64,000 nt of DNA from Minisyncoccota bacterium (GCA_028711065.1 JAQTSY010000001.1:86610-150609); one strand, 5' to 3'. Numbered from the stretch's first letter, positions 7,632-57,381 are shown. Notes: generated by a model not told the origin, from the sequence alone. Translations and numbers: made by a program.

Positions 7632-7818
7632 AGGAAGGCGAGTAACAACTTTTATCAAACATCGCGGAAACTCGCGGGCATGGTCTGTCAACGACCCGCC
7701 CTTTGGGGACGGGCTCATTGACAGCCGCGAGTTGAGCGAGAGGAAAGTTTTCCCGCTGGGGAAAACTATTCTGTTTTGAGAAAAGTTGTTAGGAGCCCAT
7801 TTGTGTTATAATTTCAGG

Positions 7819-9027: not shown

Positions 9028-9085
9028 AAAATAGGGGAAATCGCCCTTGGAAAAGCATGCGTGTGGGCGTATAATCATAACCAGT

Positions 9086-24479: not shown

Positions 24480-24550
24480 CGGGGTGTGGTGTAACGGTAG
24501 CATCCATGATTTGGGATCATGTAGTCAGAGTTCGAATCTCTGCACCCCGA
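24480..24550 (+). tRNA. tRNA-Pro (anticodon TGG)
   Basis: Manual fold: acceptor cggggtg/caccccg, D-arm gtgt..gcat, anticodon stem catga/tcatg with loop tttGGGa (anticodon TGG), T-arm cagag-ttcgaat-ctctg, discriminator A. No encoded CCA. Confidence 0.8.
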
Positions 24551-24618
24551 CAAATAAAAACCTCGCATTACTTATCTTTATAAAATAAAGAGTAGAGATG
24601 CGAGGCTGTTGTTATGTT

Positions 24619-26355
24619 TTAGAATCTGTTGATTACGTCCTCCAAACCCAGTTCAGTAACCTCCTGGGTTCTGCGATTTCGCAATTCAACGATGCCTTCG
24701 GCAGCACGCCGGCCGACAGTTATTCGCCAAGGACAACCAATGAGGTCCGCGTCTTTAAACTTCGCACCTCCTTGCAGACTTTCACGATCGTCGAGGAGTA
24801 CCGGTATCCCTCGTCCAGCCAGACGCTCATAAAGCGTATCTGATACCTTTCGCTGGTCTGGGTTGTCATACTTGACCGGTATAATCTCGACCCTGAATGG
24901 GGCGACTGATACGGGCCAGATGATTCCATCTTTGTCCCGATTTTGTTCCACGATTGCCTGCATAAGGCGGGTTGTTCCGATACCGTAGCAACCCATCCAG
25001 AGAGGGTGTGGCTTGCCATCCTCGCCTTTGTATGTTGCTCCCATCTTATCTGTATAAAGGCTTTGAAGCATAAAGATGTGCCCCACTTCAATGCCGTGAC
25101 TTTCCTGTAACAAGCCCATTTTGCATTCAGGGCATGTATGGCCAGCCACTGCGAGGTGAAGGTCAAAATAGCACTCCGGCGCGGCGAAATCACGTCCCGG
25201 TACCACATCAAGGAAGTGGTGCTCGGTCTTGTTTCCGCCGCATAGGATGTTGATCAGTCCTTCGACCGAACGGTCGAAGAGAATGGCGCGCACGTTCTGA
25301 AGTCCGATCGGGCCTGCAAAGCCAACGTCAGCGCCCGTGACAGCGCGTACGACGTCCGGTTTTGCCGGTTCCACCGATTGCGCGCTGAGCGCGTTTTTGA
25401 GTTTGATGATATTGATTTCCAGATCGCCTCGGATGCAGACCGCGACTTGGTACGATTGGCTTGGGCCAAGTTCCTCGTCGGCGGTGAGAATAATGGTCTT
25501 CACCATACGAGTTGCATCAAGGTCCGGAAACAGCTTGACCAGATCTTCCACGGTGCGTGTATTCGGCGTGTATTCAAGACGCATTGTCGCCGAGGGCTTG
25601 CTTTGCGGTGTGGGCGTCGGAACAACACTCGTTGCCTTTTCGGCATTTGCTCCATAATTGCAAGTGGGGCAGGTCAGGAGTATGTCTTCCCCACCCTCTT
25701 CCGAAACCGCCATAAATTCCGAGGAACCTTTTCCCCCGATGGCGCCTGAATCCGCTTGCACGTTGATGCAATTGGTCAGTCCGACCCGCTGAAATATCTC
25801 CGTATAGATTAGGCGGAAGAGATCGAAACTCTTCTGCATACCAGCTTGGTCGCGATCGAACGAGTAGGCGTCCGACATATCGAATTCGCGACACCGAAGC
25901 AGTCCGTGCCGAGGCCGGATTTCATCTCTGAATTTCCATCCGATTTGATGCCAAATGACCGGCAAATCGCGGTAACTGTCAATCGTTTCTGCCGCGAGTT
26001 GTGTTACCACTTCTTCTGCGGTTGGAGCCAGGCCAAACTTCGCGCCAGTGTGCCGTTCGGTGGTCTCGAACATCACCTTTGTGCCGGTATACTTATCCCA
26101 GCGTTCGGTTTTCAGCCAAAGTTCTTGCGGTTGCAAAATCGGCAACTGCAAGTTTTGCACATCGTGGCTTTCCATCACGTCCCAGACGATCGCCTGGATT
26201 TGTCTCCAGACGCGAAAGCCGAGTGGCAACAGAATGTAAGATCCCGGTGCCAATTGCTTAATGAAGCCTGCCTTCAGGAGGAAGGAGTGGGCCGCTGTCA
26301 TCGCCGCACCGACCTCGCCGTAGCGAGTTCGGGGAAACAATTTGGTCATTCTCAT
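24619..26355 (-). CDS. proS: proline--tRNA ligase (bacterial type with editing insertion)
   Basis: 578-aa class II ProRS with motif-2/3 regions and an INS domain. GC content is markedly higher than genome background. Confidence 0.9.
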   Translation of the reverse strand: MRMTKLFPRTRYGEVGAAMTAAHSFLLKAGFIKQLAPGSYILLPLGFRVWRQIQAIVWDVMESHDVQNLQLPILQPQELWLKTERWDKYTGTKVMFETTERHTGAKFGLAPTAEEVVTQLAAETIDSYRDLPVIWHQIGWKFRDEIRPRHGLLRCREFDMSDAYSFDRDQAGMQKSFDLFRLIYTEIFQRVGLTNCINVQADSGAIGGKGSSEFMAVSEEGGEDILLTCPTCNYGANAEKATSVVPTPTPQSKPSATMRLEYTPNTRTVEDLVKLFPDLDATRMVKTIILTADEELGPSQSYQVAVCIRGDLEINIIKLKNALSAQSVEPAKPDVVRAVTGADVGFAGPIGLQNVRAILFDRSVEGLINILCGGNKTEHHFLDVVPGRDFAAPECYFDLHLAVAGHTCPECKMGLLQESHGIEVGHIFMLQSLYTDKMGATYKGEDGKPHPLWMGCYGIGTTRLMQAIVEQNRDKDGIIWPVSVAPFRVEIIPVKYDNPDQRKVSDTLYERLAGRGIPVLLDDRESLQGGAKFKDADLIGCPWRITVGRRAAEGIVELRNRRTQEVTELGLEDVINRF

Positions 26356-26482
26356 GGTTTTTGCCCTTTCTGTGGCTTGTGTTACTCTAAAGAACGGCTT
26401 TCCATCACAAGTTTTAGCTTAATATTGAAGCCGTCCTCTTGTCAAATGCGATTAAAATGGGTATTCTGCGCTAATAAATATA

Positions 26483-27303
26483 TGGATACAAAAACAAAAA
26501 CGACAACTATCGGTATCTTGGGCTATGGAAATATGGGTCAAGCAATTGTAGCACAACTCCAGACCATGAAAGCGTCAAAGATGAATATTGAGATTGTCAT
26601 TCATTCTTTGGGAGTGAGTAATGTTCCAGGCGCTCGCTGTGTCGAATCCTCCATTGATTTATTTGAAGCTAGTGATTTTGTATTTGTTTGCGTAAAGCCT
26701 CAGGATTTTTACCAGCTCAAGACGCTAACTATAAAAAATGCCAAACATTTGATTGTTGTTTCAATTATGGCCGGTGTTCGTATAGTCAATATTCAGAAAG
26801 TATTTCCTGGAGCTAAAGTCGTGCGAGTAATGCCAAATTTACCGCTCCAAATCGGGCAAGGCGTCATTGGCTGGTATTTGAAAAAAGATTCTTTGACTTC
26901 AGACGAGCAAGCTTTTCTTGAAAAAGTCTTTTCAGTATTTGGCTTGAGTGTCCCGTTGCAAGAGGAAAAAATGCTCGATGCATTGACGGCTGTCTCCGGT
27001 TCAGGTCCTGCTTATGTTTTTCTCTTTGCAAACGCTCTTATAAAGTCAGCACGAGAACTTGGATTTAGCCAAGATGTTGCCGAAAAGATTGTGATAAAAG
27101 CAATTACCGGTTCGATTGCCTATGCTGTTTCGAAAGAGCATCCTGATTTTGAGCGCCTTATTCAGATGGTGCAGTCAAAAGGAGGGACAACGGAAGCGGC
27201 GCTTAACACTTTGGATGTTGAAAATTATTATACAGAGTGGCAAAAGGCAATTAAAAAAGCCTACGAGCGCGCTCAAGAAATTTCTTCTCATGACAGCAAA
27301 TGA
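26483..27303 (+). CDS. proC: pyrroline-5-carboxylate reductase
   Basis: Rossmann 'IGILGYGNMGQAI' and a C-terminal 'SKGGTTEAAL' ProC signature. The longer 25846 ORF start is antisense to proS and was rejected. Confidence 0.85.
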
Positions 27304-28555
27304 ACTTAAAAAAAATATAGCTGACGCTAAAAGAGCAAGTACTTCTTTGCTCATTTTAACTGCGCTTGAACGACGAGAGGTTTTACTAAAACTTGCGGAG
27401 CTTCTCGAACGAAATAGCGGACGAATCATCGTTTTGAACCAGAAGGATATTTCTATCGCAAAACAAAATGGTAAAGCAGATAGTTTTATCGAACGGTTGT
27501 CTCTTGATAAGAATAAAATTATAGCGATGGCGAATGCAACTCGTGCAGTCGCAAAACAGCAAGATATTCTTTTTAAAACTCTAGAACAACGTCGACGGCC
27601 GAACGGACTTCTCATTAAAAAGGTTCGCTTCCCTCTTGGGCTTGTTGCTATGATTTACGAATCACGCCCGAATGTGACCATCGACGCTTTCACACTTTCT
27701 TTTAAAAGTGGTAATGCGCTTTTGTTGAAAGGAGGAAAAGAAATTCTGTTTACAAACAAGATTCTTGTCAGGCTTATTCACGAAGCGCTTGCGACGCGAC
27801 ATATTGACACGAATGTTGTTAAAAATCTAAGCGGATTGGATAAAAAATTCGTCATTGAATTAATGAGTAATCCTTCGATTGATTGTCTCATTCCGCGTGG
27901 GGGGAAAAACTTGATTGATTTTGTGAGAAAATACGCTCGCGTCCCGGTTATTGTCACTGGCGCTTCAGTTGTACACACCTATGTTGACTCCGATGCGAAC
28001 ATTGAAAGCGCCACACGAATTATTTTGAATGCAAAGATGCGACGTGTTTCTATCTGTAACGCGCTTGATGTCGTCCTTTTGCATCGAAAGGTATATGCGC
28101 AAATGTTACGAAAACTTGGGCCTGATTTGGCGGAAAAGCGCGTTCAAATTCGCGCCGACCGGCGGAGTTTCGACGTGCTCAAGAAATCCCGTTACCCATA
28201 TTTGAAACATGCTCTTGCGAAAGATTTCGATACTGAATTCCTTGATTATGTGCTTGCAATAAAAGTCGTCAACAATTTTGAAGAGGCGCTTCAGCATATT
28301 TCGGAGCATAGCTTAGGCCATAGCGAAGCCATTATCACTCGCTCGAAAAAGCATGCTGAAGTATTCTTTCGTACGATCGATGCGGCTTGTCTCTATCTCA
28401 ATACCTCAACTCAATTCAGCGATGGCGGAGAATTCGGAATGGGAGGAGAGATTGGCATTAGTACCCAGAAACTTCATGCTCGGGGGCCTTTTAGCGCGCT
28501 TGAACTCACGACATATAAATATCTCGTGAAGAGCGACGGAGCAATCAGGAAATAA
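27290..28555 (+). CDS. proA: gamma-glutamyl phosphate reductase
   Basis: Aldehyde-dehydrogenase-type ProA with a 'CNALDVVLLH' catalytic Cys region. Overlaps the proC stop by 14 nt. Confidence 0.85.
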   Translation: MTANELKKNIADAKRASTSLLILTALERREVLLKLAELLERNSGRIIVLNQKDISIAKQNGKADSFIERLSLDKNKIIAMANATRAVAKQQDILFKTLEQRRRPNGLLIKKVRFPLGLVAMIYESRPNVTIDAFTLSFKSGNALLLKGGKEILFTNKILVRLIHEALATRHIDTNVVKNLSGLDKKFVIELMSNPSIDCLIPRGGKNLIDFVRKYARVPVIVTGASVVHTYVDSDANIESATRIILNAKMRRVSICNALDVVLLHRKVYAQMLRKLGPDLAEKRVQIRADRRSFDVLKKSRYPYLKHALAKDFDTEFLDYVLAIKVVNNFEEALQHISEHSLGHSEAIITRSKKHAEVFFRTIDAACLYLNTSTQFSDGGEFGMGGEIGISTQKLHARGPFSALELTTYKYLVKSDGAIRK

Positions 28556-28630
28556 CACATTGCGTTTTCTGTCCGCAAAAGAAAAAACCTTCTGTCGCGG
28601 TGAAGCGAAAGAAGGTCTCATGCGTGTTAA

Positions 28631-29782
28631 TTATTTGGCGAAGACAAAGTCGTTGGCATGGATGGCGATGACCGCCGCTCCCCGCAATTGCTCCTTTTCG
28701 GCTTCTGGCAATATGCGGTACTTGTCGACTTTTTCTCGCAACTCATGGCTGGTGTGGCGGGTCAGTCCGCGTCCGAGGAGAATGCCGTCGTCATCAATAA
28801 TTTCGACGACGTCTCTTTTCCCGAACTCGCCCCTAACCTCTTCGATGCCGGCCAAGAGAACCGAAGGGGTTCTCCGCTCGCTTTTGTTCTGAGTTCCGCC
28901 TTCGCGAAGCCTGTCAGCTAGATAAGTTGAGACCACAATTTTTCCCGCTCCGACTGCCGCTGTGAGAAGCCAGCTTTTCAAGGCCTCTTCTTTTTCGGCT
29001 GTTGTGGGGAAGAATGTGCCGAGCTTCTCGCCCCCGATAATCCGCATAAGCGGTGTTTTCTCGGTTCCGGCGGCAATATGCATAGGAATGCCGAGCGAAG
29101 TTACTTTCTCGGCACAGAGGAGCTTGCTCTGAATGCCTCCCTTGCCGGTGTGTTTCCCCGCCTCAAATGTTTCCATAAAGGTGGAGACATCGGCAATTTC
29201 CGGTATAAGTTTGGCGCCCTCTTCCTGTGGCGGACGATCATACACTCCTGCCACGTTGGTGAGGAGGATGAGTTCGTCAGCCGATATCATCGCTGCAATA
29301 ACAAGCGCGAGCTGGTCATTGTCGCTGAAATCCAGTTCTTCCGGCGAGAGCACATCGTTCTCGTTGAAGATTGGAATAACGCCGTATCGGAGGAGTTCTC
29401 CGGTAACGACGCGCAAGCTCAAGTAGAACCTGCGATCAGCGAAGTCGGATCTTGTCGTCAGGAGTTGCCCGCAGCTCAAGTTATGTTTGGCGAATTCTTC
29501 GCTATACAACGCCATGAGCTTCGGTTGGCCTACAGACGCGAGAATTTGCTCCCGAAGAAGCCTCGAGTCATACCGGTCTGGCGCATTGACGGCGAACGTT
29601 GGGTTCGCGAATTGCGAGACGGTTTTCCCCAGGATGACTGCCCCCGAGGAGATAATGACGACTTGATGGCCTTGCTTTACGAGTCCGGCAACGTCTTCCA
29701 CGAGGTTTGCGATAACCTCGTGCTTGATGCCGTCCGGCCCGGAAAGCACAGCGGAACCGATTTTTACTGCGATGCGTTTCAT
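28631..29782 (-). CDS. proB: glutamate 5-kinase (with PUA domain)
   Basis: 'IAVKIGSAVL' amino-acid kinase N-terminus and a C-terminal PUA domain. GC-rich like proS. Confidence 0.85.
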   Translation of the reverse strand: MKRIAVKIGSAVLSGPDGIKHEVIANLVEDVAGLVKQGHQVVIISSGAVILGKTVSQFANPTFAVNAPDRYDSRLLREQILASVGQPKLMALYSEEFAKHNLSCGQLLTTRSDFADRRFYLSLRVVTGELLRYGVIPIFNENDVLSPEELDFSDNDQLALVIAAMISADELILLTNVAGVYDRPPQEEGAKLIPEIADVSTFMETFEAGKHTGKGGIQSKLLCAEKVTSLGIPMHIAAGTEKTPLMRIIGGEKLGTFFPTTAEKEEALKSWLLTAAVGAGKIVVSTYLADRLREGGTQNKSERRTPSVLLAGIEEVRGEFGKRDVVEIIDDDGILLGRGLTRHTSHELREKVDKYRILPEAEKEQLRGAAVIAIHANDFVFAK

Positions 29783-29831
29783 GTGGATGTTCCTCCTAAA
29801 AGGGTTACGCGGCAACAACAAAAGTCAAACT

Positions 29832-31828: not shown

Positions 31829-32734
31829 ATGATTCCAGAATTTCCAAAATTTAAAAAATTAGAGCTCTCTGACAAAGCGGATGTGGAGGCTTTTACCCAT
31901 AAATACCCGCCATATTCTGATTTTAATTTTACTAGTATGTGGTCCTGGAATATAAAAGATGAGATGAGTATTTCACAGATGAATAATAATTTTGTCGTCC
32001 GTTTTACAGACTACGTCACAGGCAAACCGTTCTTATCATTTCTCGGTACAAATAAAGTAAATGAGACAGCACAGGCACTCTTGGAATTTTCAAAATCTGA
32101 AGGCCTAGAAGAGCAGATGAAATTAATTCCCGAAGATGTAATAAAACATCTCAATAAGGAACAATTTAAAATCCAGGAGGATAGAGATAATCACGATTAC
32201 ATTTTTTCTGTAGAGAAATTAAAGCCGCGGGCCAGTGCGGGAAGAAAATTAAGTACGAGAAGAAAGATCGTAAATAGGCTCCGACAACTCTCTCATTATT
32301 CCGTAACTCCAATTGATTTAAACGACAAAACTGTAAAAGAAAAAATCGAAAAAGTTTCTCTTGTATGGGAAGAGCAAAGGGGTATAGCAGAGAAAGATGC
32401 GAGGCATCTTTCTCGAGCCATGAACCGCATACTCACCATGGAACACTCGAAAAATACTTTATCTTTGGGGGTATTTATTAGAGAACAATTTGTCGGCTAT
32501 TCAATAAATGAAATCGTGAACGATGAGTACGCGATGGGAGATTTTCAACAGGCCGATCTAAAATCTTCTCTGGGAATATATGCCTTTCTCATGGAAGAAA
32601 CGGGTCTCTATTTAGACAAAATCGGCTGTAAATATATAAATCTTGAGCAAGATTTGGGTATTCCGGGACTTAGGAAGTGGAAAATGTCTTATCATCACGA
32701 TTTCTTCCTTAAAAAGTATATTGTAAGCCTGTAG
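31829..32734 (+). CDS. DUF2156 domain protein (MprF C-terminal aminoacyl-transferase-like)
   Basis: N-terminal 'FKKLELSDKADVEAFTHKY..YSDFNFTSMWSW' matches the DUF2156 / LysPG-synthase C-domain pattern (L.LeDk..f..y......s#f.F.n$%.W). Confidence 0.55.
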   Translation: MIPEFPKFKKLELSDKADVEAFTHKYPPYSDFNFTSMWSWNIKDEMSISQMNNNFVVRFTDYVTGKPFLSFLGTNKVNETAQALLEFSKSEGLEEQMKLIPEDVIKHLNKEQFKIQEDRDNHDYIFSVEKLKPRASAGRKLSTRRKIVNRLRQLSHYSVTPIDLNDKTVKEKIEKVSLVWEEQRGIAEKDARHLSRAMNRILTMEHSKNTLSLGVFIREQFVGYSINEIVNDEYAMGDFQQADLKSSLGIYAFLMEETGLYLDKIGCKYINLEQDLGIPGLRKWKMSYHHDFFLKKYIVSL

Positions 32735-42196: not shown

Positions 42197-44128
42197 ATGA
42201 AGCAAATACTTATTTTTGTTGCTGTTATTATCATCCTCGTTGTTGGAGGATTTTTTTTGCAAAACAAAAATAATCTCGAGAAAGTCCAGAATATAATTAC
42301 GAGAGCAACTCCGACCCCGACACCAACACCCGAAATTGACCCAAGCTCGCTTACCTGGACACAGACAAAAACAAACGCGGAAGGCTGGCCAAAACGCGAC
42401 TCTCATTCGGTATTTGTATTTGATAATAAGATGTGGGTGCTTGGCGGGCTTGATGCCGATAGTTCAAAAATTGCCGGAGTACCTGATTATGAATCAGCAA
42501 TTTATTACAACGATATTTGGAATACTTCAGACGGCGTGAATTGGACGAGAGTAGTGGAACATGCCGATTTTCCTTACATCCGCTCGGCATCGGTCGTCAA
42601 TTTCAAAGGAGTGCTCTATATGTACGGAGGCTGGAGCCCGCATGATGGGCTTGAATATAAAAACGGTATTTGGAGCTCGACTGATGGAATTCATTGGAAA
42701 AAAGTGGTTGAGAAACCGGAATATCCTGAAAGGGAGGGACAAATCGTGCTCGAATGGAATGGGAAACTGTGGCTCGTCGCGGGTGTGGATTATTTTGGGA
42801 GGAAAACGTTCAACGACGTTTGGTCTTCTGACGACGGGATCCACTGGACAGCGGCAACCACAGACGCCCCTTGGCATTCAAGGTGGGACCACGCGCTCGG
42901 TGTATGGAACGGAAAAATGTATATCGCCGGAGGAATGAATTTTCACGGAGTTGGCTACAGCGATGAATGGGTCTCAAGCGATGGCGCTCATTGGGACCTC
43001 GTAAGTCCGAACGCTGCATGGGGAGAAAGGCAAGGACAAGAAATAGTAAATTACCATGGATACATGTGGCTCATTAGTGGGCTTCATTCTGCAAGCAACG
43101 AGGGTAAAGGTGACGCGTGGTATAGCACTGACGGAATTGAATGGAAAAAAGCTTCGGACGATTACCAATGGAAGGGTAGGGAAGACCACGGCGTCATTGT
43201 GTTCAACGATAAAATCTGGGTAATGGGAGGAATGGACAGCGATTGGCACTGGAATGGAGATGTGTGGTCTTCCGGTTTTTTGCCGATGTTTAGCGCACCA
43301 AGAGAAAAAATATCGCCAACACCATCACCAGAACCCACAGTAGATCTTTCAAAGCCGGACGTTTCAGCACTTGAATATTTTTCCATTCTTTTAGATGCGC
43401 AAGGGAAACAGACAATCCTCGCGGAGAAGAATAAAAATATGCCGGTACCAATTGCAAGCATAACCAAACTTATGACAGCAGTGATTGCAAGCGAAGAGCT
43501 GCCTGCAGACAGAAACATAACCGTACCAGCAAGCGCTCTAGCGGGGAAGGGAAGTGCGGGAGAAATAAAGGCTGGAGAAACATTTTCTCTGAATGACCTG
43601 CTTTCTATACTTCTTCTTCCTTCCGATAACGATACTGCGGAACTTTTAGCGCAAACAGTTGGTGAAGAAAAGTTTATTAATCTCATGAATAAGAAGGCCC
43701 AAGAGATCGGAATGACTCACACAAAATACGTAAATGCCATGGGACTTGATAACGGAACTGCAATTGATTCAAATCAGTCTACAGCTGAAGATCTTTCTAA
43801 ATTGGCTATCTATATTATTAAAAATCATCCAAAGATTCTTGCGATAACCGGCACAAAAGAAAAAACTGTTTCAGATACCGCAGGAATACAGCATACGCTC
43901 AAGTCTACAAACCATATGTTTGATATTAAAATGGCGGTTGATGTTCTTGGAGGAAAAACTGGAGAAACGCCACTTGCGAAGAAAAACCTTGTTCTCATCA
44001 CGAACGGATTTTCTCCCCAATCTTCTAGCCCAGATGACCGCATGATTTCGGTTGTTCTCCATTCAGACGATAATTTTTTTGATATGCAAAAACTTATATT
44101 CTGGATAGTAAGCAACTGGAAAAAATAA
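42197..44128 (+). CDS. membrane-anchored beta-propeller / D-alanyl-D-alanine carboxypeptidase (S11, PBP5-like) fusion protein
   Basis: N-terminal TM helix, then five or more ~47-aa repeats with 'W.S.DG..W' and 'GG' (Kelch/Asp-box-like). The C-terminal domain carries 'SITK' (SxxK), 'SDN' and 'KTG' serine-peptidase motifs. Confidence 0.75.
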   Translation: MKQILIFVAVIIILVVGGFFLQNKNNLEKVQNIITRATPTPTPTPEIDPSSLTWTQTKTNAEGWPKRDSHSVFVFDNKMWVLGGLDADSSKIAGVPDYESAIYYNDIWNTSDGVNWTRVVEHADFPYIRSASVVNFKGVLYMYGGWSPHDGLEYKNGIWSSTDGIHWKKVVEKPEYPEREGQIVLEWNGKLWLVAGVDYFGRKTFNDVWSSDDGIHWTAATTDAPWHSRWDHALGVWNGKMYIAGGMNFHGVGYSDEWVSSDGAHWDLVSPNAAWGERQGQEIVNYHGYMWLISGLHSASNEGKGDAWYSTDGIEWKKASDDYQWKGREDHGVIVFNDKIWVMGGMDSDWHWNGDVWSSGFLPMFSAPREKISPTPSPEPTVDLSKPDVSALEYFSILLDAQGKQTILAEKNKNMPVPIASITKLMTAVIASEELPADRNITVPASALAGKGSAGEIKAGETFSLNDLLSILLLPSDNDTAELLAQTVGEEKFINLMNKKAQEIGMTHTKYVNAMGLDNGTAIDSNQSTAEDLSKLAIYIIKNHPKILAITGTKEKTVSDTAGIQHTLKSTNHMFDIKMAVDVLGGKTGETPLAKKNLVLITNGFSPQSSSPDDRMISVVLHSDDNFFDMQKLIFWIVSNWKK

Positions 44129-45503: not shown

Positions 45504-47561
45504 ATGAAAAAGGTTTGTTTTTTGGGGGCTTTTGTGGCCCTGATCCTTTGCAGTGTTGATGTCACGATGACCAGAGAAGGCCTCGTGACATGGACAAGCG
45601 TAAATTACGACAGCGATCCGATGTACGTTCACTTCGAAGATGGGCGATCCGTAACCCTCCACAAAGGGCAAAGTCTGATCGTCTCAGAGCCTTGTGTTCT
45701 TCACGTTCATTCGTGCGGTTGGGATAAGATCCCGTTCACCCCGCAGAAATCGATGAGGTTTAGTCCCCGGCAGGCAAGTATGCTTCCCGTAGTACCAATG
45801 TCGAACAACAAGAGGCGGAAAATTATTCTCAATTATCCACCAGTGTCGTCCGTGTGGCATCTGCCGTTCGGAATCGCACAACTCGCCGCGTGTCTCAAAG
45901 AGCGCGGGCACGAAGTGCGTCAGCGATACGGTCACATCATAGGCCTCGAGCATATACTCCGTGAATATGGAGGAGATGAAGCCGAAGGAGCAATCGCCAC
46001 GATTCGAGATCCAAAGAGTGATATTCTGGCACTTTATAATGTCCAGCAATCGCTCAAAAAGATTTCGAAAAGTGTGCCGACAAGGGATAAATTCGTCGTG
46101 TACGGCAACAACGCAAACTATGTTTCAGCCGACAACGACGGAAGCATTGAAGGAATCCTATGTGCTATCGAAAACCGGAAAAGCAATATGTGGTATCGCT
46201 ACTTCGCCGAAGTGGAAATTCCTCTGGCGGAAGATTGTCAGCCGGATATTTACGGCGTGAGCATCGCGGACGAACGTCATCTGGTGCAAGGATTTATTCT
46301 TGCATCGCTTGTGAAGGAAGCCCTGCCCAAGACCCTCGTGGTCATCGGCGGAAATTTCTTCGCACGCACACCGGATGCATTCAAGACGCCTGAGTTTGCA
46401 AAGCTTTTCGACCATTGCGACGCAATCGTCTGGAGCGAAGGCTTCGAGCCGATCTGCAAACTCGCCGACTCACTTGACCCTTCCTCTACACCCGGAACGG
46501 CGTGGAGAAATGGAGACAAAGTAATCGTCAATCCACCGTCGGTAGATGCAACGTCGTTTGAATCACTACCAACTCCCATCTTTGATGGGGGAGCTCGGCA
46601 GTGGTCGCCTGATGACGTGTATCCGCTTTATACGATGTCGAATTGTCCAATGCAATGCGGCTTCTGCGCCATCGCGGCCGGAAGCGACACATTCCTTGGA
46701 CGATCACGAATGATGAGTCCGCAGCGGGTAGCAGAGCATATGCAAAAGCTCGACGGACATCGGTTTGATATCATCAACGAACTCATGCCGGTTCCATACC
46801 AACTCGCTCTCGGGGCTGAACTGAAAAAAATCGGCCACGAAGCGACCTGGCAGTGTTACCTGACTGTCACGAACGACCTCGCCGACCCGGCAAAGTGCAA
46901 GCAATTGTACGATGCGGGTTGCCGTGGCGTTCAGCTCGGTCTCGAAACACTTTCGCGCGAAACGCTTCTCCGCGAGAAAAAGGGGTGGAACCATCCCGAA
47001 CACTACGTGGAGATACTTCGCAATCTGAAAGATGCCGGAATACAAACACACGTGTTCCTGCTTCTCGGATTGCCGGGACAGCCACTTCATCACGATCTGC
47101 GCTGGCTGGCGTTTCTTGAAGAGCACGGCGACCTTATCTTGACTATCAAAAGCGGACGCTACCGGCTCGCGAGGAAAGCGCCGGAAGAACAATTCGGCAC
47201 GCACAGCTCCCTTATCAAAGTTGCAGAGAGCATCAAGCCGCTTCGGCTCAATCGGGACTTCCAGTATACGAGCAAATTCTTGAGCCGGTCCCGAGTCGAG
47301 GCGGTTCGAGACATTCTTGAAGAAGCATGTCGGCGGCACTGGGCATATCAAACCACAACGATTCTCCCTTGGTGGATCAATCGGGGCAGATATTCGTGGA
47401 ATGATTTCTCCGAGATGGCGAAGGTACTGCCGCGAGAAGAGCCAGTCCGACACATCGACGAGGCGGTAAAAAAGATGGAGCGGCTCGTCTTCGACGAGCT
47501 TGGCAGAAAAGAGACCTTTTCGTCATTTGAAGATTTGGTCGCTTTCTCCCACACCATCTAG
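45504..47561 (+). CDS. B12-binding domain / radical SAM protein (GC-rich insertion in the dcw cluster)
   Basis: 'RKIILNYPP' plus 'VVIGGNFFARTP' B12-binding-like N-domain. 'CPMQCGFC' is a CxxxCxxC radical-SAM cluster motif. 685 aa at about 55% GC. The N-terminal ~98 aa is hydrophobic and signal-peptide-like. GGAGG RBS at 45491-45495. An alternative internal start is M99 at 45798. Confidence 0.75.
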   Translation: MKKVCFLGAFVALILCSVDVTMTREGLVTWTSVNYDSDPMYVHFEDGRSVTLHKGQSLIVSEPCVLHVHSCGWDKIPFTPQKSMRFSPRQASMLPVVPMSNNKRRKIILNYPPVSSVWHLPFGIAQLAACLKERGHEVRQRYGHIIGLEHILREYGGDEAEGAIATIRDPKSDILALYNVQQSLKKISKSVPTRDKFVVYGNNANYVSADNDGSIEGILCAIENRKSNMWYRYFAEVEIPLAEDCQPDIYGVSIADERHLVQGFILASLVKEALPKTLVVIGGNFFARTPDAFKTPEFAKLFDHCDAIVWSEGFEPICKLADSLDPSSTPGTAWRNGDKVIVNPPSVDATSFESLPTPIFDGGARQWSPDDVYPLYTMSNCPMQCGFCAIAAGSDTFLGRSRMMSPQRVAEHMQKLDGHRFDIINELMPVPYQLALGAELKKIGHEATWQCYLTVTNDLADPAKCKQLYDAGCRGVQLGLETLSRETLLREKKGWNHPEHYVEILRNLKDAGIQTHVFLLLGLPGQPLHHDLRWLAFLEEHGDLILTIKSGRYRLARKAPEEQFGTHSSLIKVAESIKPLRLNRDFQYTSKFLSRSRVEAVRDILEEACRRHWAYQTTTILPWWINRGRYSWNDFSEMAKVLPREEPVRHIDEAVKKMERLVFDELGRKETFSSFEDLVAFSHTI

Positions 47562-52699: not shown

Positions 52700-52963
52700 A
52701 TGTTAATGAAGAGAGCGAACAACCGCGGATTTATACGCCTTATCATTCTCATCCTCGTGGTGCTTATAGCATTAAGTTACCTCGGCTTTGACGTAAAGAA
52801 AATTATTTACTCTCCCACAGTTACGAAAATTGCTTCACTCGTCTGGAGTGTCCTTGTTTTGGTCTTTAAGTTACTTTTTGCCGTCCTTCAAGCAGCATGG
52901 GGAACAATTAGCCAAGGACTTAAATATACGCTTACTCTGGTTCAAAATATAAAGACGCCTTAG
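52700..52963 (+). CDS. small membrane protein, hypothetical
   Basis: 87 aa with 2 TM helices. Confidence 0.35.
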   Translation: MLMKRANNRGFIRLIILILVVLIALSYLGFDVKKIIYSPTVTKIASLVWSVLVLVFKLLFAVLQAAWGTISQGLKYTLTLVQNIKTP

Positions 52964-53652
52964 TTTGTAAATTTCGCTATTTCTTCGGCGACAATTTTAG
53001 GATGAGTGATGTGGGGGGAATGTTTCGCTCCACCTATCACCACAAGTTTTGAATCTTTAATATTTTTCTGCATAAGGTATGCATCTGAAAGAGGTGTTAT
53101 TTTGTCTTCTTTGCCCCAGAGGATGAGGGTGGGGATGGAAATTTTTGTAAGCTCGGGTGTGAGGTCGCGTGAGATGAGATTTTTCATTGTCTCCCGCATA
53201 TTTTCGCCTGCTCGGCCGTAATCATTGGCACCAATTATTTTATAGAAAATTTTTCGGACGAGGGAAGAGTTGAGAAAAAATTTCCCGATTCGCGCGAGAC
53301 CCCCGAACACCGCACGCTTTGCGCGCAGAGGAAATTCATTGTGAACAATTCCTGCGGAATCTAAAAGGATAAGTTTCCGGATAAGGCTTGGATTTTTGGC
53401 AATAGCTGCAATGGCAATTCTGCCTCCATTTGAATGCCCGAGAAGCGTCACATTTTGTTCACCGACCAGAGCTTTTTCCAGCCAAATAACATACTCGGGA
53501 AGCGTCCACACTTTATCTGATTTCTCTGCGAGTCCAGGAACACGAAGCATAACAGGTTCAAACCCGCGTGAACGAAGTTCTGCGAGACACGGCTCCCAAG
53601 CATCGAGCGTGTATGTCCAGCCGTGAATAATGTGAATCTTTATATTTGCCAT
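52960..53652 (-). CDS. alpha/beta hydrolase
   Basis: Nucleophile elbow 'GHSNGG' with an Asp/His triad arrangement. Last gene of the minus-strand operon. Confidence 0.75.
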   Translation of the reverse strand: MANIKIHIIHGWTYTLDAWEPCLAELRSRGFEPVMLRVPGLAEKSDKVWTLPEYVIWLEKALVGEQNVTLLGHSNGGRIAIAAIAKNPSLIRKLILLDSAGIVHNEFPLRAKRAVFGGLARIGKFFLNSSLVRKIFYKIIGANDYGRAGENMRETMKNLISRDLTPELTKISIPTLILWGKEDKITPLSDAYLMQKNIKDSKLVVIGGAKHSPHITHPKIVAEEIAKFTN

Positions 53653-54974
53653 TTTTTACGTTGATTAACCCAGATTGCTTCCCGACGGCACAGTTTTGAG
53701 GCGTCAGACGGATTCAAGAGAAGTTTTTCTACAACGCCCTCTAAATATCTTGCCCCTTTGAAAAGAATTGTTTCTCCTCCTTTCAATTCTCTTTTGAGAT
53801 ACAAGAGGGCTTCACCGGGCATAAGAAAGGCTATGACTTTTTGAGTTCCTAGATGTTTTACAAGCGGGGGATAGGTATATTTTGTGAGTCTCGGCCCAAC
53901 AAGAATAACCCGCGCAGGGGAGACAGACAAGATGTCTTTTGCAATATCTATGTGCTCTGCCTCCTCGCTCTTGCCTTGTTCAATCATATCTCCGAGGACA
54001 AGCCACTTTTCGCCTATGGCCGGATGGCGACGAGTAAGATCAAGCATCGTCCGCATTCCATCCATTGTTGCATTGTAGGTGCTATCAATAAGCGTCGTGT
54101 TTTCTATTCCCTGAAATACCGAGCTTCTGCCAGGAGGAAGTTCGAAATTTCTAAACGTGGAATCAACTTTAAATCCAAGAGTTTTCACAGCCGTCGAAAC
54201 CGCGACAACCGAGAGGGAAGAGGCGGGTGGAACCAACCGAGGGAGCGAGAAATTCCCGACCAGAGTCTCAATCTCTACGCCCTCGTTTACAATTTTAAAG
54301 CTCCGGATCTCCTTTTCAGAAACTGGAATTACTTTTGATTTTGTCCGTTTTGATTGTTTTGTTATGAAACGATTGTCAGCGTTTAAAATAGAAAACCCCT
54401 TGGTAGTCTCCAGAAAATGGCCAAATTCGTTTGCCATCGCTTCTTTGACTGCCTCGCGATGATTATCTCCGGAAGATGCAACAATGCGATCAAAATTTAT
54501 TCCGTGCGCTTCTTCCAAGGAAAGCCACACAAGCCCTTCGGGCTTTAGAAGTTGCGCCAAGAATTTTCCTTCACCCGGCCGTTCTGCGTCAGCCTCCACT
54601 ACATATAATTTCTCTTTTGGAAGGCCTCGAAATGCTCGAAATGGCGAGAGGAGAGCAAAAAGCGGCCATTCGATTATATTAAAAGATTTCCGCTGAAGCC
54701 CCAGAATATGAAATGGAATCCCAAAAGTGCTGTTTGCGTGGTGCGAATATCGAGCCCTTTCGCCAAGTTCGGCTTCAAATAAATGAAGGAGGGTTGTTTT
54801 CCCACTTGAGCCGATAACCGCTATGATTTTCGGATTCCATCGGCGCAAATAGATTTTTGCCCAAAATCGAAAGTAGCTGGCTACAAAAAAATAAATTTTC
54901 TTTTTTATTGTTCTTAGAATTTTCATATGCCGCGTTTTATTTTTCGTACCGTTTCGACAACAAAATTGATCCAA
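53640..54974 (-). CDS. Mur ligase family protein (MurF-like, short N-terminus)
   Basis: 'IIAVIGSSGKTT' Mur-ligase P-loop and a central/C-terminal Mur ligase fold. Overlaps the neighbouring genes, consistent with an operon. Confidence 0.55.
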   Translation of the reverse strand: MDQFCCRNGTKNKTRHMKILRTIKKKIYFFVASYFRFWAKIYLRRWNPKIIAVIGSSGKTTLLHLFEAELGERARYSHHANSTFGIPFHILGLQRKSFNIIEWPLFALLSPFRAFRGLPKEKLYVVEADAERPGEGKFLAQLLKPEGLVWLSLEEAHGINFDRIVASSGDNHREAVKEAMANEFGHFLETTKGFSILNADNRFITKQSKRTKSKVIPVSEKEIRSFKIVNEGVEIETLVGNFSLPRLVPPASSLSVVAVSTAVKTLGFKVDSTFRNFELPPGRSSVFQGIENTTLIDSTYNATMDGMRTMLDLTRRHPAIGEKWLVLGDMIEQGKSEEAEHIDIAKDILSVSPARVILVGPRLTKYTYPPLVKHLGTQKVIAFLMPGEALLYLKRELKGGETILFKGARYLEGVVEKLLLNPSDASKLCRREAIWVNQRKKWQI

Positions 54975-57187
54975 TATCTCGGGCTTAAAACATAATCCTG
55001 TGCAGGAACATACTTTCCTTCTCCACCGCCGAAACCGCGCTTAAATTGTGACAACCCGTACCACGGATGTTTTTTATCATCTTCAGAAACAATTCCCCAA
55101 AAATTATACGAATCACATCCGCGTTTTTTCGCTTCTTTTATCGCCTCCCATTGCAAAAGCTCCGATGCGGAAATAGAAGGGAAGGGGGTATTTGAAGCTC
55201 CGTGGTGATAAAATCCTGAATTCGAAGTATAGATGATAAATGCCGTTGAAATATATTGGCCTTTGTATTTTCCAAACCACAAAAGCGCCTGATTATTTTC
55301 TAGAAATGTTTTAAATTCATTCTCTAAATATTTTCTTGAAAACGGCGTAAAATTTTGCCGCTTCACCGTGTCCATATAAATTGACCAGAATTTTTCAAAA
55401 TCCTCCATTGATTTTGATGATTCAATCTCGACGCCATCTTTAATAGCCTTACGGACCGCATAACGAGTATTTTTCCTCATTCCAGTTTGAATTTCCTCCT
55501 CTGTTTTCGAAAGAGAGAGAACAGAGGTGTGTTCACTGTGGAGATGAATCGGAGCTTTTTTAAATCCTAGTTCAGTAAAAATTTTAGAATGAGCAGGGGA
55601 GTCCGCGAGTATACTACTGACCCGGATAAAGTGACAATTCTCCTTTCTACCAATCGCGACTGATTCATCTTTCAAGAGTTCGAGAATTTCTGAAGTTTTT
55701 CCCGAGTATGCGGGATCAATCGCTGGACTATGATGCCAAGCAAGAAAAGTCCCCCGGCGAGCGACAATTTTTGTAACACTCGAGGCCGCGACAAGCTTCC
55801 CTTCGTCATACACACCTAGTCTCCAAAGTTTATTTCCCATTTTCTTTTCAAACTCTCCCCAATTCCAAGAAATAAGAAAAGTTGCTGGTTTAACCCGCAT
55901 GAGAAATGACTCGAGCTCTTCTTTTGAATTAATTTCCCTTACTTGCATGAAAGAATCTTTTATTGCATTTGCGATTTTTTTCGCGTCCTGCACCGATATC
56001 TGGATACTAGTCGGCAAATTTATCGATTTTTCTGAAAGTTCTTTCGCGCGAGGATTCTCGGAGAGCGCAAATTGAATTTTTTCATACTGAACTCCTTCTG
56101 GGGCTATCGCGTCCGTATACCAATTACCAAGGCGCACTCCTCGCGTCTTCAAAAACAATGCGAGCTTTGATGGCAGATCGATAAGAATTGTGTAGCGGAG
56201 ATAGATGCTCTTTCTTATTTCATCTTTCACTTTGAGAGGCTTCACGATTCGAGAAATCGAAGCGAGTTCCCGTTCATATACTTCTGCTATCTGGCGGCGA
56301 TGCTCATTAAATGCAGAAAGCTTCGCGAATTGATGAAGTGCAACAAAAGCCAAAATATCTGACATTTTATGAAAGACGAAGCTTGGTTTGCCCCCGGAAA
56401 GTTCTGCCTTCTCAACTGCTTTTGAAAAAAATCCTAGGCGCTTGCAAATTTCGATGAAAATCTTGCCGATATTTGCTACTGAATAAAGAGGTTTTCCCAA
56501 AGCAAAGATGATTGGATGATTGAGTTGTTTCTTCACCCAACCCCATTTTGATTCAGAATATGATGCGTAGAGCGTCCGGACATCGTTTGCGATTCGCGCG
56601 TCTTTCACTAACAGTACACCTCCGAAGACCGAAGAAAGAACTTTATCCCGCCCGAAACTAAAGAAACTCGCATCGCCGAAACTTCCAACCTTTTTACCTT
56701 TATATTCTGCACCAAGCGCATGCGCGCAGTCTTCAATGACAAAAAGATTATGTCTTCGGGCGATAAGAAGCAACTCCTCCAGATGTGCCGGCGTGCCGAA
56801 TGTATGCTGGATGATGAGTACCCTGGCTTTCGAAGTAATTTTTTTCTCGAGATCTTCAGGATTCATCGTAAAGTCATCCAAACTATCGACATAAATAGGC
56901 TTCGCACCCACCCAAAGTATCGGCCCCGGCACTGCAACGCAGGTATAAGCTTGCAAAAGAACCTCATCAGTTGAGGAAAGATTCAGCGCGGATAAAATTG
57001 CAAAAAGAGATGTTCGCCCGCTATCAAAAGCAAAAGCATGGGGAAGGGGAATATAGGTCGAAATCGCATGCTCAAGGCGAGCTCTGGAACCGAGGGTCTT
57101 ATTCCTCGTCCACGGAAAAAATCGCAAACGAATTGCGAGGGAAATATCGTCACGCTCTGTGTTTGGCGAAAGGCTCGTAAAAATCAT
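54923..57187 (-). CDS. DegT/DnrJ/EryC1-family PLP aminotransferase fused to a FemAB-family aminoacyl-tRNA-dependent peptidyltransferase
   Basis: N-terminal half: 'DCAHALGAEYKGKKVGSFGDASFFSFGRDKVL' (DegT PLP-lysine region). C-terminal half: 'MRKNTRYAVRKAIKDGVEI', 'LLQWEAIKEAKKRGCDSYNFWGI' and 'GLSQFKRGFGG' (FemAB PF02388 signatures). A single 754-aa ORF. Confidence 0.8.
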   Translation of the reverse strand: MIFTSLSPNTERDDISLAIRLRFFPWTRNKTLGSRARLEHAISTYIPLPHAFAFDSGRTSLFAILSALNLSSTDEVLLQAYTCVAVPGPILWVGAKPIYVDSLDDFTMNPEDLEKKITSKARVLIIQHTFGTPAHLEELLLIARRHNLFVIEDCAHALGAEYKGKKVGSFGDASFFSFGRDKVLSSVFGGVLLVKDARIANDVRTLYASYSESKWGWVKKQLNHPIIFALGKPLYSVANIGKIFIEICKRLGFFSKAVEKAELSGGKPSFVFHKMSDILAFVALHQFAKLSAFNEHRRQIAEVYERELASISRIVKPLKVKDEIRKSIYLRYTILIDLPSKLALFLKTRGVRLGNWYTDAIAPEGVQYEKIQFALSENPRAKELSEKSINLPTSIQISVQDAKKIANAIKDSFMQVREINSKEELESFLMRVKPATFLISWNWGEFEKKMGNKLWRLGVYDEGKLVAASSVTKIVARRGTFLAWHHSPAIDPAYSGKTSEILELLKDESVAIGRKENCHFIRVSSILADSPAHSKIFTELGFKKAPIHLHSEHTSVLSLSKTEEEIQTGMRKNTRYAVRKAIKDGVEIESSKSMEDFEKFWSIYMDTVKRQNFTPFSRKYLENEFKTFLENNQALLWFGKYKGQYISTAFIIYTSNSGFYHHGASNTPFPSISASELLQWEAIKEAKKRGCDSYNFWGIVSEDDKKHPWYGLSQFKRGFGGGEGKYVPAQDYVLSPRYWINFVVETVRKIKRGI

Positions 57188-57253
57188 AACAGTAGTACTA
57201 GAATATCATATTCCAAATTTTCTTTTTTGATTGAGAGGGAAGGGCCTCCTCTG

Positions 57254-57279
57254 GCTTCATGTCGCACAAGATACATTGT
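57254..57279. promoter_or_regulatory. operator-like perfect palindrome upstream of the DegT-FemAB operon
   Basis: 'TGTCGCACA-N8-TGTGCGACA', about 70-90 nt upstream of the minus-strand start at 57187. Confidence 0.4.
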
Positions 57280-57341
57280 GCGACGTATAGGTACCTCTAG
57301 AAAGGACTCTCCCCTAAAGTTATCCACACCACTAATTCGAA

Positions 57342-57372
57342 CGACAAAGGCCGACCTTTTAAAAGGTCGGCC
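57342..57372. terminator. palindromic terminator-like hairpin
   Basis: 'aaaggccgaccttttaaaaggtcggccttt' followed by a T-rich tract. Confidence 0.5.
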
Positions 57373-57381
57373 TTTGTATTT

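Follow-up and report, generated by a model that had tools for sequence, protein, structure and literature searches.

The DNA analyzed here, referred to throughout as the window, is a stretch of 64,000 nucleotides (nt) from a Minisyncoccota bacterium (GCA_028711065.1 JAQTSY010000001.1:86610-150609), and all coordinates are counted from its first letter. On the minus strand it carries an operon encoding an α/β-fold hydrolase, a MurF-like ligase and a 754-amino-acid (aa) protein in which a DegT-like, pyridoxal phosphate (PLP)-dependent enzyme is joined to a FemX-like aminoacyl-tRNA-dependent transferase. The best explanation of the results presented below is that these proteins form a four-function cell-wall set which is a signature of the Patescibacteria (candidate phyla radiation, CPR), and that the window holds the local copy of this module. 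The genes and domains of the operon, with the evidence used to assign them, were as follows.

54923..57187, minus strand: 754-aa open reading frame (ORF), DegT-like PLP enzyme fused to FemX-like aminoacyl-tRNA-dependent transferase (ORF list, Pfam/NCBIfam, exact match at NCBI, AlphaFold2 (AF2) model)
55949..57187, minus strand: DegT/DnrJ/EryC1-like domain, aa 1-413 (PF01041, PDB sequence matches, Foldseek, alignment of fusions)
54923..55948, minus strand: FemX-like domain, aa 414-754, beginning with the ancestral start codon of FemX, ATG 55948-55946 (PF02388, PDB profile, starts of relatives)
53640..54926, minus strand: MurF-like ATP-dependent ligase of 'type B', 428 aa (Mur_ligase_C/M, TIGR01143, AF2, Foldseek)
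52960..53652, minus strand: α/β-fold serine hydrolase, 230 aa (Abhydrolase_1, alignment of 57 sequences)

Species-representative genomes were scanned with two motifs of the DegT-like subfamily (FSFGRDK and IEDCAH), and the subfamily was found in at least 589 stretches. Eighty loci were kept, nearly all titled Patescibacteria (Paceibacterota, Nealson-, Magasanik-, Peregrini-, Gottesman-, Portnoy-, Woyke-, Staskawicz- and Yanofskybacteria, and others), and the few metagenome-assembled genomes (MAGs) with other taxonomic labels were taken to be mislabelled. Complete genomes with the module include CP179888.1, OZ246411.1 and OZ246399.1. Gene content was recorded for 86 related loci, with recurrent neighbours counted within 8-kb flanks. 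The hydrolase, a membrane-anchored MurF-like ligase, the DegT-like enzyme and FemX were found together in 48 of the 86 loci, usually in that order, and a soluble ligase of the window type was found in six. The DegT and FemX genes overlapped or lay no more than 100 nt apart in 50 loci.

The recurrent neighbours included genes for an FtsQ-like protein (42 loci), PBP2 (19), MurG and FtsW (10 each), M23 peptidase (9), FtsA (8), MraY (6) and MurA (4), and in the window itself MraY, FtsW, MurG and an M23 peptidase were encoded 0.3-9 kb away on the other strand. A preliminary description of this DNA, prepared from the sequence of the window alone, had linked the operon with the cell envelope, and the peptidoglycan and division genes around the module bear this out. 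Seryl-tRNA synthetase was encoded near the module in 41 of the 86 loci and lysyl-tRNA synthetase in 31 (for example L002:4314-7196, L060:874-2142 and L045:2860-4329, L numbers denoting loci), with the seryl enzyme directly upstream of the hydrolase in L002. This recurrence may hint at the amino acid donor of FemX or may be inherited synteny. Two neighbour clusters, of 16 and 9 loci, consisted of ArnT/PMT-like GT-C glycosyltransferases lying within 8 kb of the module, L002 being one example. Enzymes that form keto-sugars (4,6-dehydratase, C3-dehydrogenase), flippases and Leloir glycosyltransferases were absent from the recurrent neighbours, and Ddl was seen in none of the fetched loci. Where DegT and FemX were separated, the genes between them were considered as additional members of the module and rejected, as they were unrelated housekeeping genes (HPRT, EF-P, Dxr, Sua5-like) with nothing consistent among them.

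Within the sequence as given, the 754-aa protein was read as a single ORF from 57187 to 54923 on the minus strand, as had been described, and the motifs quoted for it (MRKNTRY, LLQWEAIKEAK..YNFWGI and FKRGFGG) were all present in the translation. The three minus-strand ORFs followed one another without gaps; the ATG of the ligase shares bases with the TGA stop codon of the fusion (ATGA) and the hydrolase and ligase genes overlap by 13 nt, which agrees with the operon structure and likely translational coupling proposed earlier. The overlap of the ligase gene with the fusion was also correctly described, but its start was placed here at ATG 54926 (428 aa) and not at the upstream TTG 54974, in agreement with homologues of 416-450 aa. 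An exact counterpart of the 754-aa protein is present in GenBank (MDD5050259.1, 'FemA/FemB family protein', Candidatus Pacebacteria), as are entries for the ligase (MDD5050258.1, 'cyanophycin synthetase') and the hydrolase (MDD5050257.1), all three from a 153-kb contig of one MAG. No characterised NCBIfam equivalog took in any of the three operon proteins, and the database names 'cyanophycin synthetase' and 'pentaglycine transferase' are misleading for proteins of this module.

Both halves of the 754-aa protein were confirmed by Pfam profile search. The N-terminal half matched DegT_DnrJ_EryC1 (PF01041; 4.2e-60, 204.3 bits against a cut-off of 19.8) and the C-terminal half matched FemAB (PF02388; 9.9e-31, 107.4 bits against a cut-off of 24), with Acetyltransf_6 also matching the latter. 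With respect to the DegT-like half, its large domain matched sugar aminotransferases among PDB sequences at 1e-34, and Foldseek comparison of the predicted structure gave a TM-score of 0.84 (E 2.7e-26) to GDP-perosamine synthase 3bn1, which identifies a fold-type I aminotransferase fold over both domains. The K186A mutant of perosamine synthase is available as PDB 3dr4, and the match to perosamine synthase is a structural one. Further Foldseek matches with TM-scores of about 0.8 were ArnB, WbpE and PseC, and Fic25, which acts on a non-sugar substrate, was also among the matches. The PLP lysine was identified as K182 in FSFGRDK, aligned with the lysine of 7b0d, and the aspartate contacting the pyridine nitrogen as D153 in IEDCAH; both residues were invariant in an alignment of 14 fusions. 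While the domain shares its full-length fold and these two residues with the nucleoside diphosphate (NDP)-sugar aminotransferases (GDP-perosamine synthase, ArnB, PseC, WbpE, QdtB), it differs from them in carrying SGR where SGT is usual, in a conserved insertion of about 55 aa after residue 215 (W217, H224, P225 and E262 being invariant in the alignment of fusions), in having no keto-sugar-forming partner nearby, and in equivalog scores that fall far under cut-off. All of the characterised equivalogs PseC, LegC, ArnB, WecE, DesI and RfbH missed in NCBIfam, the best being PseC with 150.8 bits against a cut-off of 423.5.

The FemX-like domain was compared with PDB entries by profile, and matched Staphylococcus aureus FemX (1.8e-32) and Weissella FemX (1e-20). 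Residues 41-321 of the FemX profile aligned with residues 39-325 of the 335-aa Weissella protein, a full-length double-GNAT match. The catalytic lysine, K716 in FKRGFGG, corresponds to Lys305 of Weissella viridescens FemX (FemX_Wv), and was invariant in both alignments inspected (A3 and A5). The domain is of the same Pfam family as FemX_Wv, a UDP-MurNAc-pentapeptide:L-alanine transferase, and as S. aureus FemX and FemA, with the Lys305 equivalent retained in FKxGFGG, and like the Weissella enzyme it is without the coiled-coil arm. It differs from the FemX enzymes of both organisms in that CPR FemX has a DegT-like PLP enzyme as its partner, in some cases within a single protein. The acceptor-binding residues listed for FemX_Wv are Lys36, Asn38, Trp39, Tyr103, Thr209, Arg211, Tyr215 and Tyr256. 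In the alignment Thr209 and Tyr215 were kept, Asn38 and Trp39 were probably kept, and Tyr256 was replaced by His, with Tyr103 left unmapped.

Two further observations concern transferases of this kind. A second, divergent FemX paralogue of about 328 aa was found between the hydrolase and the ligase in three loci (L055:5314-6303, L057:4357-5343, L081:5365-6345), which recalls multi-step bridge synthesis. In the window, a stand-alone ORF at 31829-32734 (plus strand), adjoining an EamA transporter, matches the C-terminal domain of phosphatidylglycerol lysyltransferase (LPG_synthase_C, 3e-21) and represents a second type of aminoacyl-tRNA-dependent transferase.

The window ligase scored 42.1 bits with Mur_ligase_C (cut-off 28.4) and 23.0 bits with Mur_ligase_M (cut-off 24). 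Its P-loop, GSSGKTT, was located at residues 39-45 with only one helix (residues 2-30) before it, in keeping with the truncated N-terminus described earlier, and a DxxYNA motif was present. The top 10 Foldseek matches to the AF2 model were all MurF (E 1.7e-22 to 1.8e-17), consistent with a MurF-like fold. MurF, the UDP-MurNAc-tripeptide:D-Ala-D-Ala ligase, was the best family both by hidden Markov model (HMM) and by fold, and the window protein has its central domain and its C-terminal domain as well as these two motifs. The lipid II isoglutamine synthase MurT/GatD offers a second likeness, as there too a Mur-type ligase lacking the N-domain acts together with a partner enzyme in tailoring a finished precursor at the membrane. 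MurT was, however, a much weaker match by fold (TM-score about 0.4) and by HMM, and its partner is a glutaminase and not a PLP enzyme or a Fem transferase.

Most CPR lineages carry a different ligase, type A, of 450-570 aa, in which a multi-pass membrane region of about 180 aa, with the conserved motif WQLKEY(H/R)xxRF, replaces the N-domain (L013:6428-7999, L083:6622-7983, L014:6454-7980 and about 60 other loci). With the murF model, type A proteins reached 204-250 bits, a little short of the cut-off. For type B, L087 and L088 have an alanine racemase gene inserted between those of FemX and the ligase. In L089 the type B ligase gene is followed in turn by those of the hydrolase, DegT, FemX and glutamate racemase, and then by MurD and a MurC/E-type ligase; bifunctional MurF-Alr proteins are a recognised family (NF008897). 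Because of these racemase and Mur ligase neighbours and the existence of the MurF-Alr family, type B looks like the lineage's own MurF-type enzyme, with a core peptidoglycan function and not an accessory one. Simple orthologous replacement of one type by the other was considered but found no support, since L019 has both (membrane-anchored, L019:6249-7984; soluble, L019:11116-12468) and the type A gene there is merely frameshifted, the break falling within a poly-A run that separates the membrane region from the P-loop. In that locus the soluble copy is preceded by a peptidase S51 gene.

The fourth member of the module, the hydrolase, matched Abhydrolase_1 (PF00561) at 4.3e-20 (72.9 bits), its GxSxG elbow being GHS74NGG. 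The triad Ser74-Asp183-His211 was invariant in 57 sequences, comprising the window protein and 56 homologues.

Because of the tight operon packing, the adjacency of DegT and FemX, the repeated fusions of module members (a Rosetta-stone signal) and the division and peptidoglycan context, the four proteins are proposed to share a precursor pathway. We judge the chances about even that they work, probably as a complex, on the tailoring or completion of one peptidoglycan precursor. On this interpretation the DegT-like enzyme, FemX, the ligase and the hydrolase would act in succession on a single precursor, probably in a complex at or near the membrane. The MurF-like ligase would complete the stem peptide with the terminal D-Ala-D-Ala or something equivalent, and FemX would start a side branch by placing an amino acid, taken from aminoacyl-tRNA, on a precursor amine. 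The PLP enzyme would either make that amine by transamination or remodel the free alpha-amino residue just added by FemX, and the hydrolase may trim or proofread an ester or amide intermediate. We consider it unlikely that the narrower form of this scheme holds, in which a membrane-tethered line of MurF-like ligase, DegT-like enzyme and FemX would build a non-canonical precursor, either by making a side-chain or sugar amine through transamination of the precursor itself, with immediate aminoacylation of that amine from tRNA, or by PLP-dependent remodelling of a residue delivered by tRNA.

Several observations weigh against a common role of the four proteins in peptidoglycan synthesis. To our knowledge, no DegT-family enzyme takes part in peptidoglycan precursor synthesis. 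Synteny in small genomes can persist without a functional link, and DegT and FemX occurred with neither ligase nor hydrolase nearby in 19 of the 86 loci. The window ligase reached only 122 bits with the TIGR01143 murF model, against a cut-off of 288.6, and it differs from the three-domain architecture of MurF in the absence of the N-terminal domain that binds UDP-MurNAc-peptide, in place of which the AF2 model (pLDDT 92.5) shows one long helix (the residues 2-30 noted above). Both ligase types are present in L019, and the view of type B as the MurF of its lineage rests on the fetched loci and not on whole genomes. In the FemX-like domain, Arg211 of FemX_Wv is replaced by a nearly invariant Phe, while S. 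aureus FemX has Arg at the same column, and Lys36 is probably aligned with an invariant Ser. These two replacements suggest that the acceptor, or the mode in which it is bound, differs from that of the characterised FemX enzymes.

The preliminary description had proposed a different function, the aminoacylation of a newly formed amino sugar. Spelled out, an amino sugar linked to a nucleotide or lipid would be produced by the DegT-like enzyme, its new amine would be aminoacylated by FemX from aminoacyl-tRNA, and the ligase would extend the product, giving a non-peptidoglycan envelope glycoconjugate or a peptide carried on an amino sugar. We regard this as rather unlikely. The full-length structural match of the DegT-like domain to NDP-sugar aminotransferases and its retained PLP lysine are in its favour, as are the GT-C glycosyltransferases in the flanks, and a different acceptor would be in line with the FemX-like domain having lost its counterpart of Arg211. 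The proposed transfer is possible in itself, with two precedents. Orf11 of the streptothricin-type antibiotic BD-12 is a FemX-like enzyme which aminoacylates the amine of an amino-sugar intermediate from Gly-tRNA, the same chemistry as had been proposed, although it stands alone, its antibiotic cluster having neither a DegT partner nor a Mur ligase. In DhpH (dehydrophos, Streptomyces luridus) one polypeptide carries an N-terminal PLP-dependent domain, which reportedly makes an amine, and a C-terminal FemX-like domain, which aminoacylates that amine from Leu-tRNA. The PLP domain is not known to be of the DegT family, and DhpH is an enzyme of secondary metabolism with a small phosphonate as its substrate, whereas the module described here is found in a core cell-wall neighbourhood across a whole radiation. 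Set against these precedents is the gene content, as no keto-sugar-forming enzyme, flippase or Leloir glycosyltransferase was a regular neighbour, and the genes inserted at the module encode D-amino-acid racemases and Mur ligases. Mur ligases activate a carboxylate, while an aminoacylated sugar amine would end in a free amine. In addition, DegT-family enzymes are not confined to sugars but act on non-sugar ketones too, Fic25 being an example.

A further alternative is that the PLP enzyme and FemX share the aminoacyl-tRNA and not the acceptor. The PLP enzyme would alter the aminoacyl group by epimerisation, beta-elimination or replacement, either on the tRNA or directly after transfer, and the two enzymes with the hydrolase would provide an unusual dipeptide or D-residue for the MurF-like ligase to install, as a tRNA-dependent bypass of D-Ala-D-Ala ligase. 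The frequency of seryl- and lysyl-tRNA synthetases in the flanks would fit such a route, although their synteny may be historical, and Ddl was not seen in any fetched locus, an observation that extends to these loci and not to whole genomes. PLP enzymes working on aminoacyl-tRNA do exist, SepCysS and SelA being two, but no member of the DegT fold is known to bind tRNA. Small peptides are built by the Fem-like enzymes DhpH-C, DhpK and PacB and by that of PDB 9wqw/9wqy, titled 'aminoacyl-tRNA-dependent peptide synthase'. The alanine racemase beside the ligase, on the other hand, fits the ordinary D-Ala route, and as the case for the bypass is one of reasoning throughout, we hold it to be improbable.

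The fusion of DegT and FemX, which had been the most prominent claim of the preliminary description, was found to depend on a single base.

55951..55960, minus strand: junction, where one T fewer than in the relative of 97% identity (AAAGATTCTT against AAAGATTTCTT) puts the two coding parts into one frame (pairwise and four-way DNA alignments)

The nearest relatives by the DegT part (L001, L003 and L005, with 97%, 83% and 81% identity) have the same operon with DegT and FemX unfused, as proteins of 416-419 aa and 341-353 aa encoded in different frames with an overlap of about 20 nt. In the aligned DNA, L001 reads AAAGATTTCTTCCATG / GATTTCTTCCATG and the window reads AAAGA-TTCTTTCATG (GA-TTCTTTCATG). 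The missing T lies nine bases 5' of the FemX ATG, at about 55954-55955, within a TTT run and next to a substitution of TTCC to TTTC; the fused reading of the junction, with two Ts, is GATTCTTTC and the unfused reading, with three, is GATTTCTT. It is because of the one T fewer than in the relatives that the window is in the fused frame, and the frame change replaces the last eight residues of DegT, FFHASKGN, by the two residues SF.

The fused state was present in two of the 86 related loci, and the best 120 matches to FemX alone were all stand-alone proteins. With the three nearest relatives unfused as well, the fusion could not be regarded as a conserved state. Comparable proteins were nevertheless found elsewhere. 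Among the best 120 matches in a protein collection clustered at 90%, 15 were full-length DegT::FemX fusions with 36-47% identity and linkers of variable length, and among the best 150 of 1552 matches (E ≤ 1e-30) in a library of 50%-identity representatives, about 12 DegT::FemX clusters were found, down to 31% identity. The 50%-identity representatives P0448 and P0498 are ligase::DegT fusions, and P0011 (1293 aa) is a triple fusion of ligase, DegT and FemX. Locus L090 has the same architecture as the window (fusion, 428-aa ligase, hydrolase) at 47% identity. Fusions of this kind are not new to the databases, where they are deposited under the FemA/FemB name. With regard to the recurrence of the fusion and its neighbourhood in other genomes, the neighbourhood recurs widely but the fusion is rare. 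As evidence the fusion by itself is weak, and it is the gene pairing that is robust.

It is possible, although we lean against it, that the fused ORF is an assembly or sequencing error and that the organism has two overlapping genes, in which case the module would be untouched. The three unfused relatives and the nature of the difference, one T in a TTT run, favour such an error, as does the coverage of about 3.4x given in the contig name of a sister MAG of the same project kind (L007), and the ORF was picked for being fused, which introduces selection bias. On the other side, the indel falls in or just upstream of the gene overlap of about 20 nt, where a frame change gives a clean fusion and not a truncation, an outcome that selection would tolerate. 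The adjacent substitution (TTCC to TTTC) means that this was no pure homopolymer slip, no broken genes were noticed in the rest of the window, and comparable in-frame fusions have arisen repeatedly in other lineages. The AF2 model of the fused protein (pLDDT 95.6, pTM 0.81) was confident across the junction and is consistent with a defined DegT-FemX interface.

An inverted repeat upstream of the operon had been described as part of its promoter region. The features of this region were as follows.

57259..57286, no strand assigned: 28-bp dif-like site, on the minus strand ACGTCGCACAA TGTATC TTGTGCGACAT (inverted repeat, conservation, GC skew)
57185..57335, minus strand: conserved intergenic block (alignment, nhmmer, identity table)
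57344..57377, minus strand: perfect 17-bp hairpin and T-run, terminator of the 141-aa gene that precedes the operon

This hairpin sets the 5' boundary of the operon. The inverted repeat is present as GTCGCACAA-N6-TTGTGCGAC at 57261-57284, but the N8 register given earlier was wrong, the outer pair being mismatched there. Its reading as a promoter element was not sustained in view of its dif-like geometry, its single copy, the switch of skew associated with it and its position away from the module start in distant loci; the repeat is likely to be a chromosomal dif site at the replication terminus and not an operator. It occurred once in the 64-kb window, with 0.01 copies expected by chance. The site has the 11-6-11 geometry of dif (PMC3025954), with 10 of 11 arm positions complementary and a core of CAxAA-TGTATx-TTxTG, and so resembles E. 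coli dif, GGTGCGCATAA-TGTATA-TTATGTTAAAT, in its length of 28 bp, its two inverted 11-bp arms and 6-bp centre, and its core. It differs from the E. coli site in having nearly symmetric arms in the window, as in systems with a single recombinase, and in being a candidate known from sequence.

The motif was kept in four close relatives and was present in six distant CPR loci (L017, L018, L020, L022, L028 and L044, from Magasanikbacteria and others). In the distant loci it lies 3' of an FtsQ-like gene, and in the four checked (L017, L018, L020 and L022) the gene beyond it is on the opposite strand and convergent, so that the site is not upstream of the module there. The converging gene has an M23-peptidase-like C-terminus in L017, L018 and L020 and is a different gene in L022; the centre in L017 is TGTATA, and the arm in L022 is TTATGCGAC. 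GC skew flipped exactly at the motif in five of the six distant loci (L017, L018, L020, L022 and L044), each with at least 4 kb on both sides, and no flip was seen in L028, which has 1.2 kb on one side only. The skew of the window itself changes sign at 51-52 kb, some 5 kb from the site at 57.27 kb, and gene orientation converges at 51-53 kb. The annotated ORFs of the window included no Xer gene and no other tyrosine recombinase. The 28-bp element is a likely chromosome dimer resolution site for the CPR radiation.

That the repeat is a repressor operator for the operon, or an RNA leader hairpin, appears very doubtful. In favour of such a role are its position 75-100 nt upstream of the start codon, in a block conserved in the four relatives (79-93% identical, equal to or above the conservation of adjacent coding DNA), and the variant right arms in distant loci, which still pair through G-U when read on the opposite strand. 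The 11-6-11 geometry with its core close to that of E. coli dif, the single copy, the location after an FtsQ-like gene in the distant loci, and a skew change at the motif in five of six of them and about 5 kb off in the window all argue against an operator, and neither an operator nor a leader is helped by a lack of Rfam matches and a fold z-score of only -1.8. A known RNA element (T-box or riboswitch), which would suit an enzyme that uses tRNA, was likewise rejected, as Rfam searches at gathering thresholds and at E ≤ 10 returned only terminator-like noise and ARAGORN found no tRNA or tmRNA.

Other features were noted in the same region. A perfect DnaA-box-like nonamer, TGTGGATAA, is located at 57320-57328 on the minus strand and was kept in all four close relatives; it was considered as part of a replication origin and this was rejected, since skew and gene orientation point to a terminus. 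A -10-like hexamer, TATGAT, overlaps a conserved mini-ORF of three codons, ATGATATTCTAG (Met-Ile-Phe-stop; 57198-57209, minus strand), 11 nt upstream of the start. The mini-ORF repeats the first three residues of DegT, MIF, and no obvious Shine-Dalgarno sequence precedes the real start of the operon.

No described DegT-FemAB pairing was found in the searched literature, in line with what the preliminary description had said, nor was any account of a DegT/FemAB/MurF module in CPR; one preprint naming both FemAB and Patescibacteria dealt with a domain-combination phylogeny only. The components are known families, and what is new relative to the searched literature is the partnership of a DegT-like enzyme, FemX and a MurF without its N-domain, the breadth of its occurrence in CPR, and the form of MurF that is anchored in the membrane. 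A large share of bacterial diversity belongs to the Patescibacteria, whose tiny genomes keep few pathways, peptidoglycan synthesis among them. The module is unlikely to be dispensable, because it recurs across the radiation, sits among division genes and repeatedly fuses its members. Identification of its product would show whether the wall of Patescibacteria is unusual, which bears on their epibiotic lifestyle, antibiotic sensitivity and recognition by their hosts. A DegT-type PLP enzyme working with a Fem transferase and a MurF lacking its N-domain would extend the known uses of aminoacyl-tRNA outside the ribosome, and a non-canonical precursor, if it proves true, would mean that the whole radiation shares a cell-wall chemistry without example in cultured bacteria. 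The module is a good target for experiment, and the fusion protein as something unique is a weak hook for it. The analysis also carries a more general lesson, in that a single base can decide whether a MAG shows a striking 'fusion', and what looks like a 'promoter palindrome' can turn out to be the dif site of the chromosome.

Additional genes of the window were recorded. Two adjacent ORFs of 413 and 460 aa, at 7786-9027 and 9047-10429 (plus strand), had no Pfam match. At 42197-44128 (plus strand), directly upstream of MraY, a 643-aa protein combines a Kelch-type beta-propeller with a D-alanyl-D-alanine carboxypeptidase (Peptidase_S11). A B12-binding radical SAM protein of 685 aa is encoded at 45504-47561 (plus strand) between MraY and FtsW, and this gene has the highest G+C of the window (up to 0.52). 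A proline cluster at 24480-29821 comprises tRNA-Pro (24480-24551), prolyl-tRNA synthetase (24619-26355, minus strand), ProC, ProA and ProB, with a G+C of 0.48-0.50 against a window average of about 0.44.

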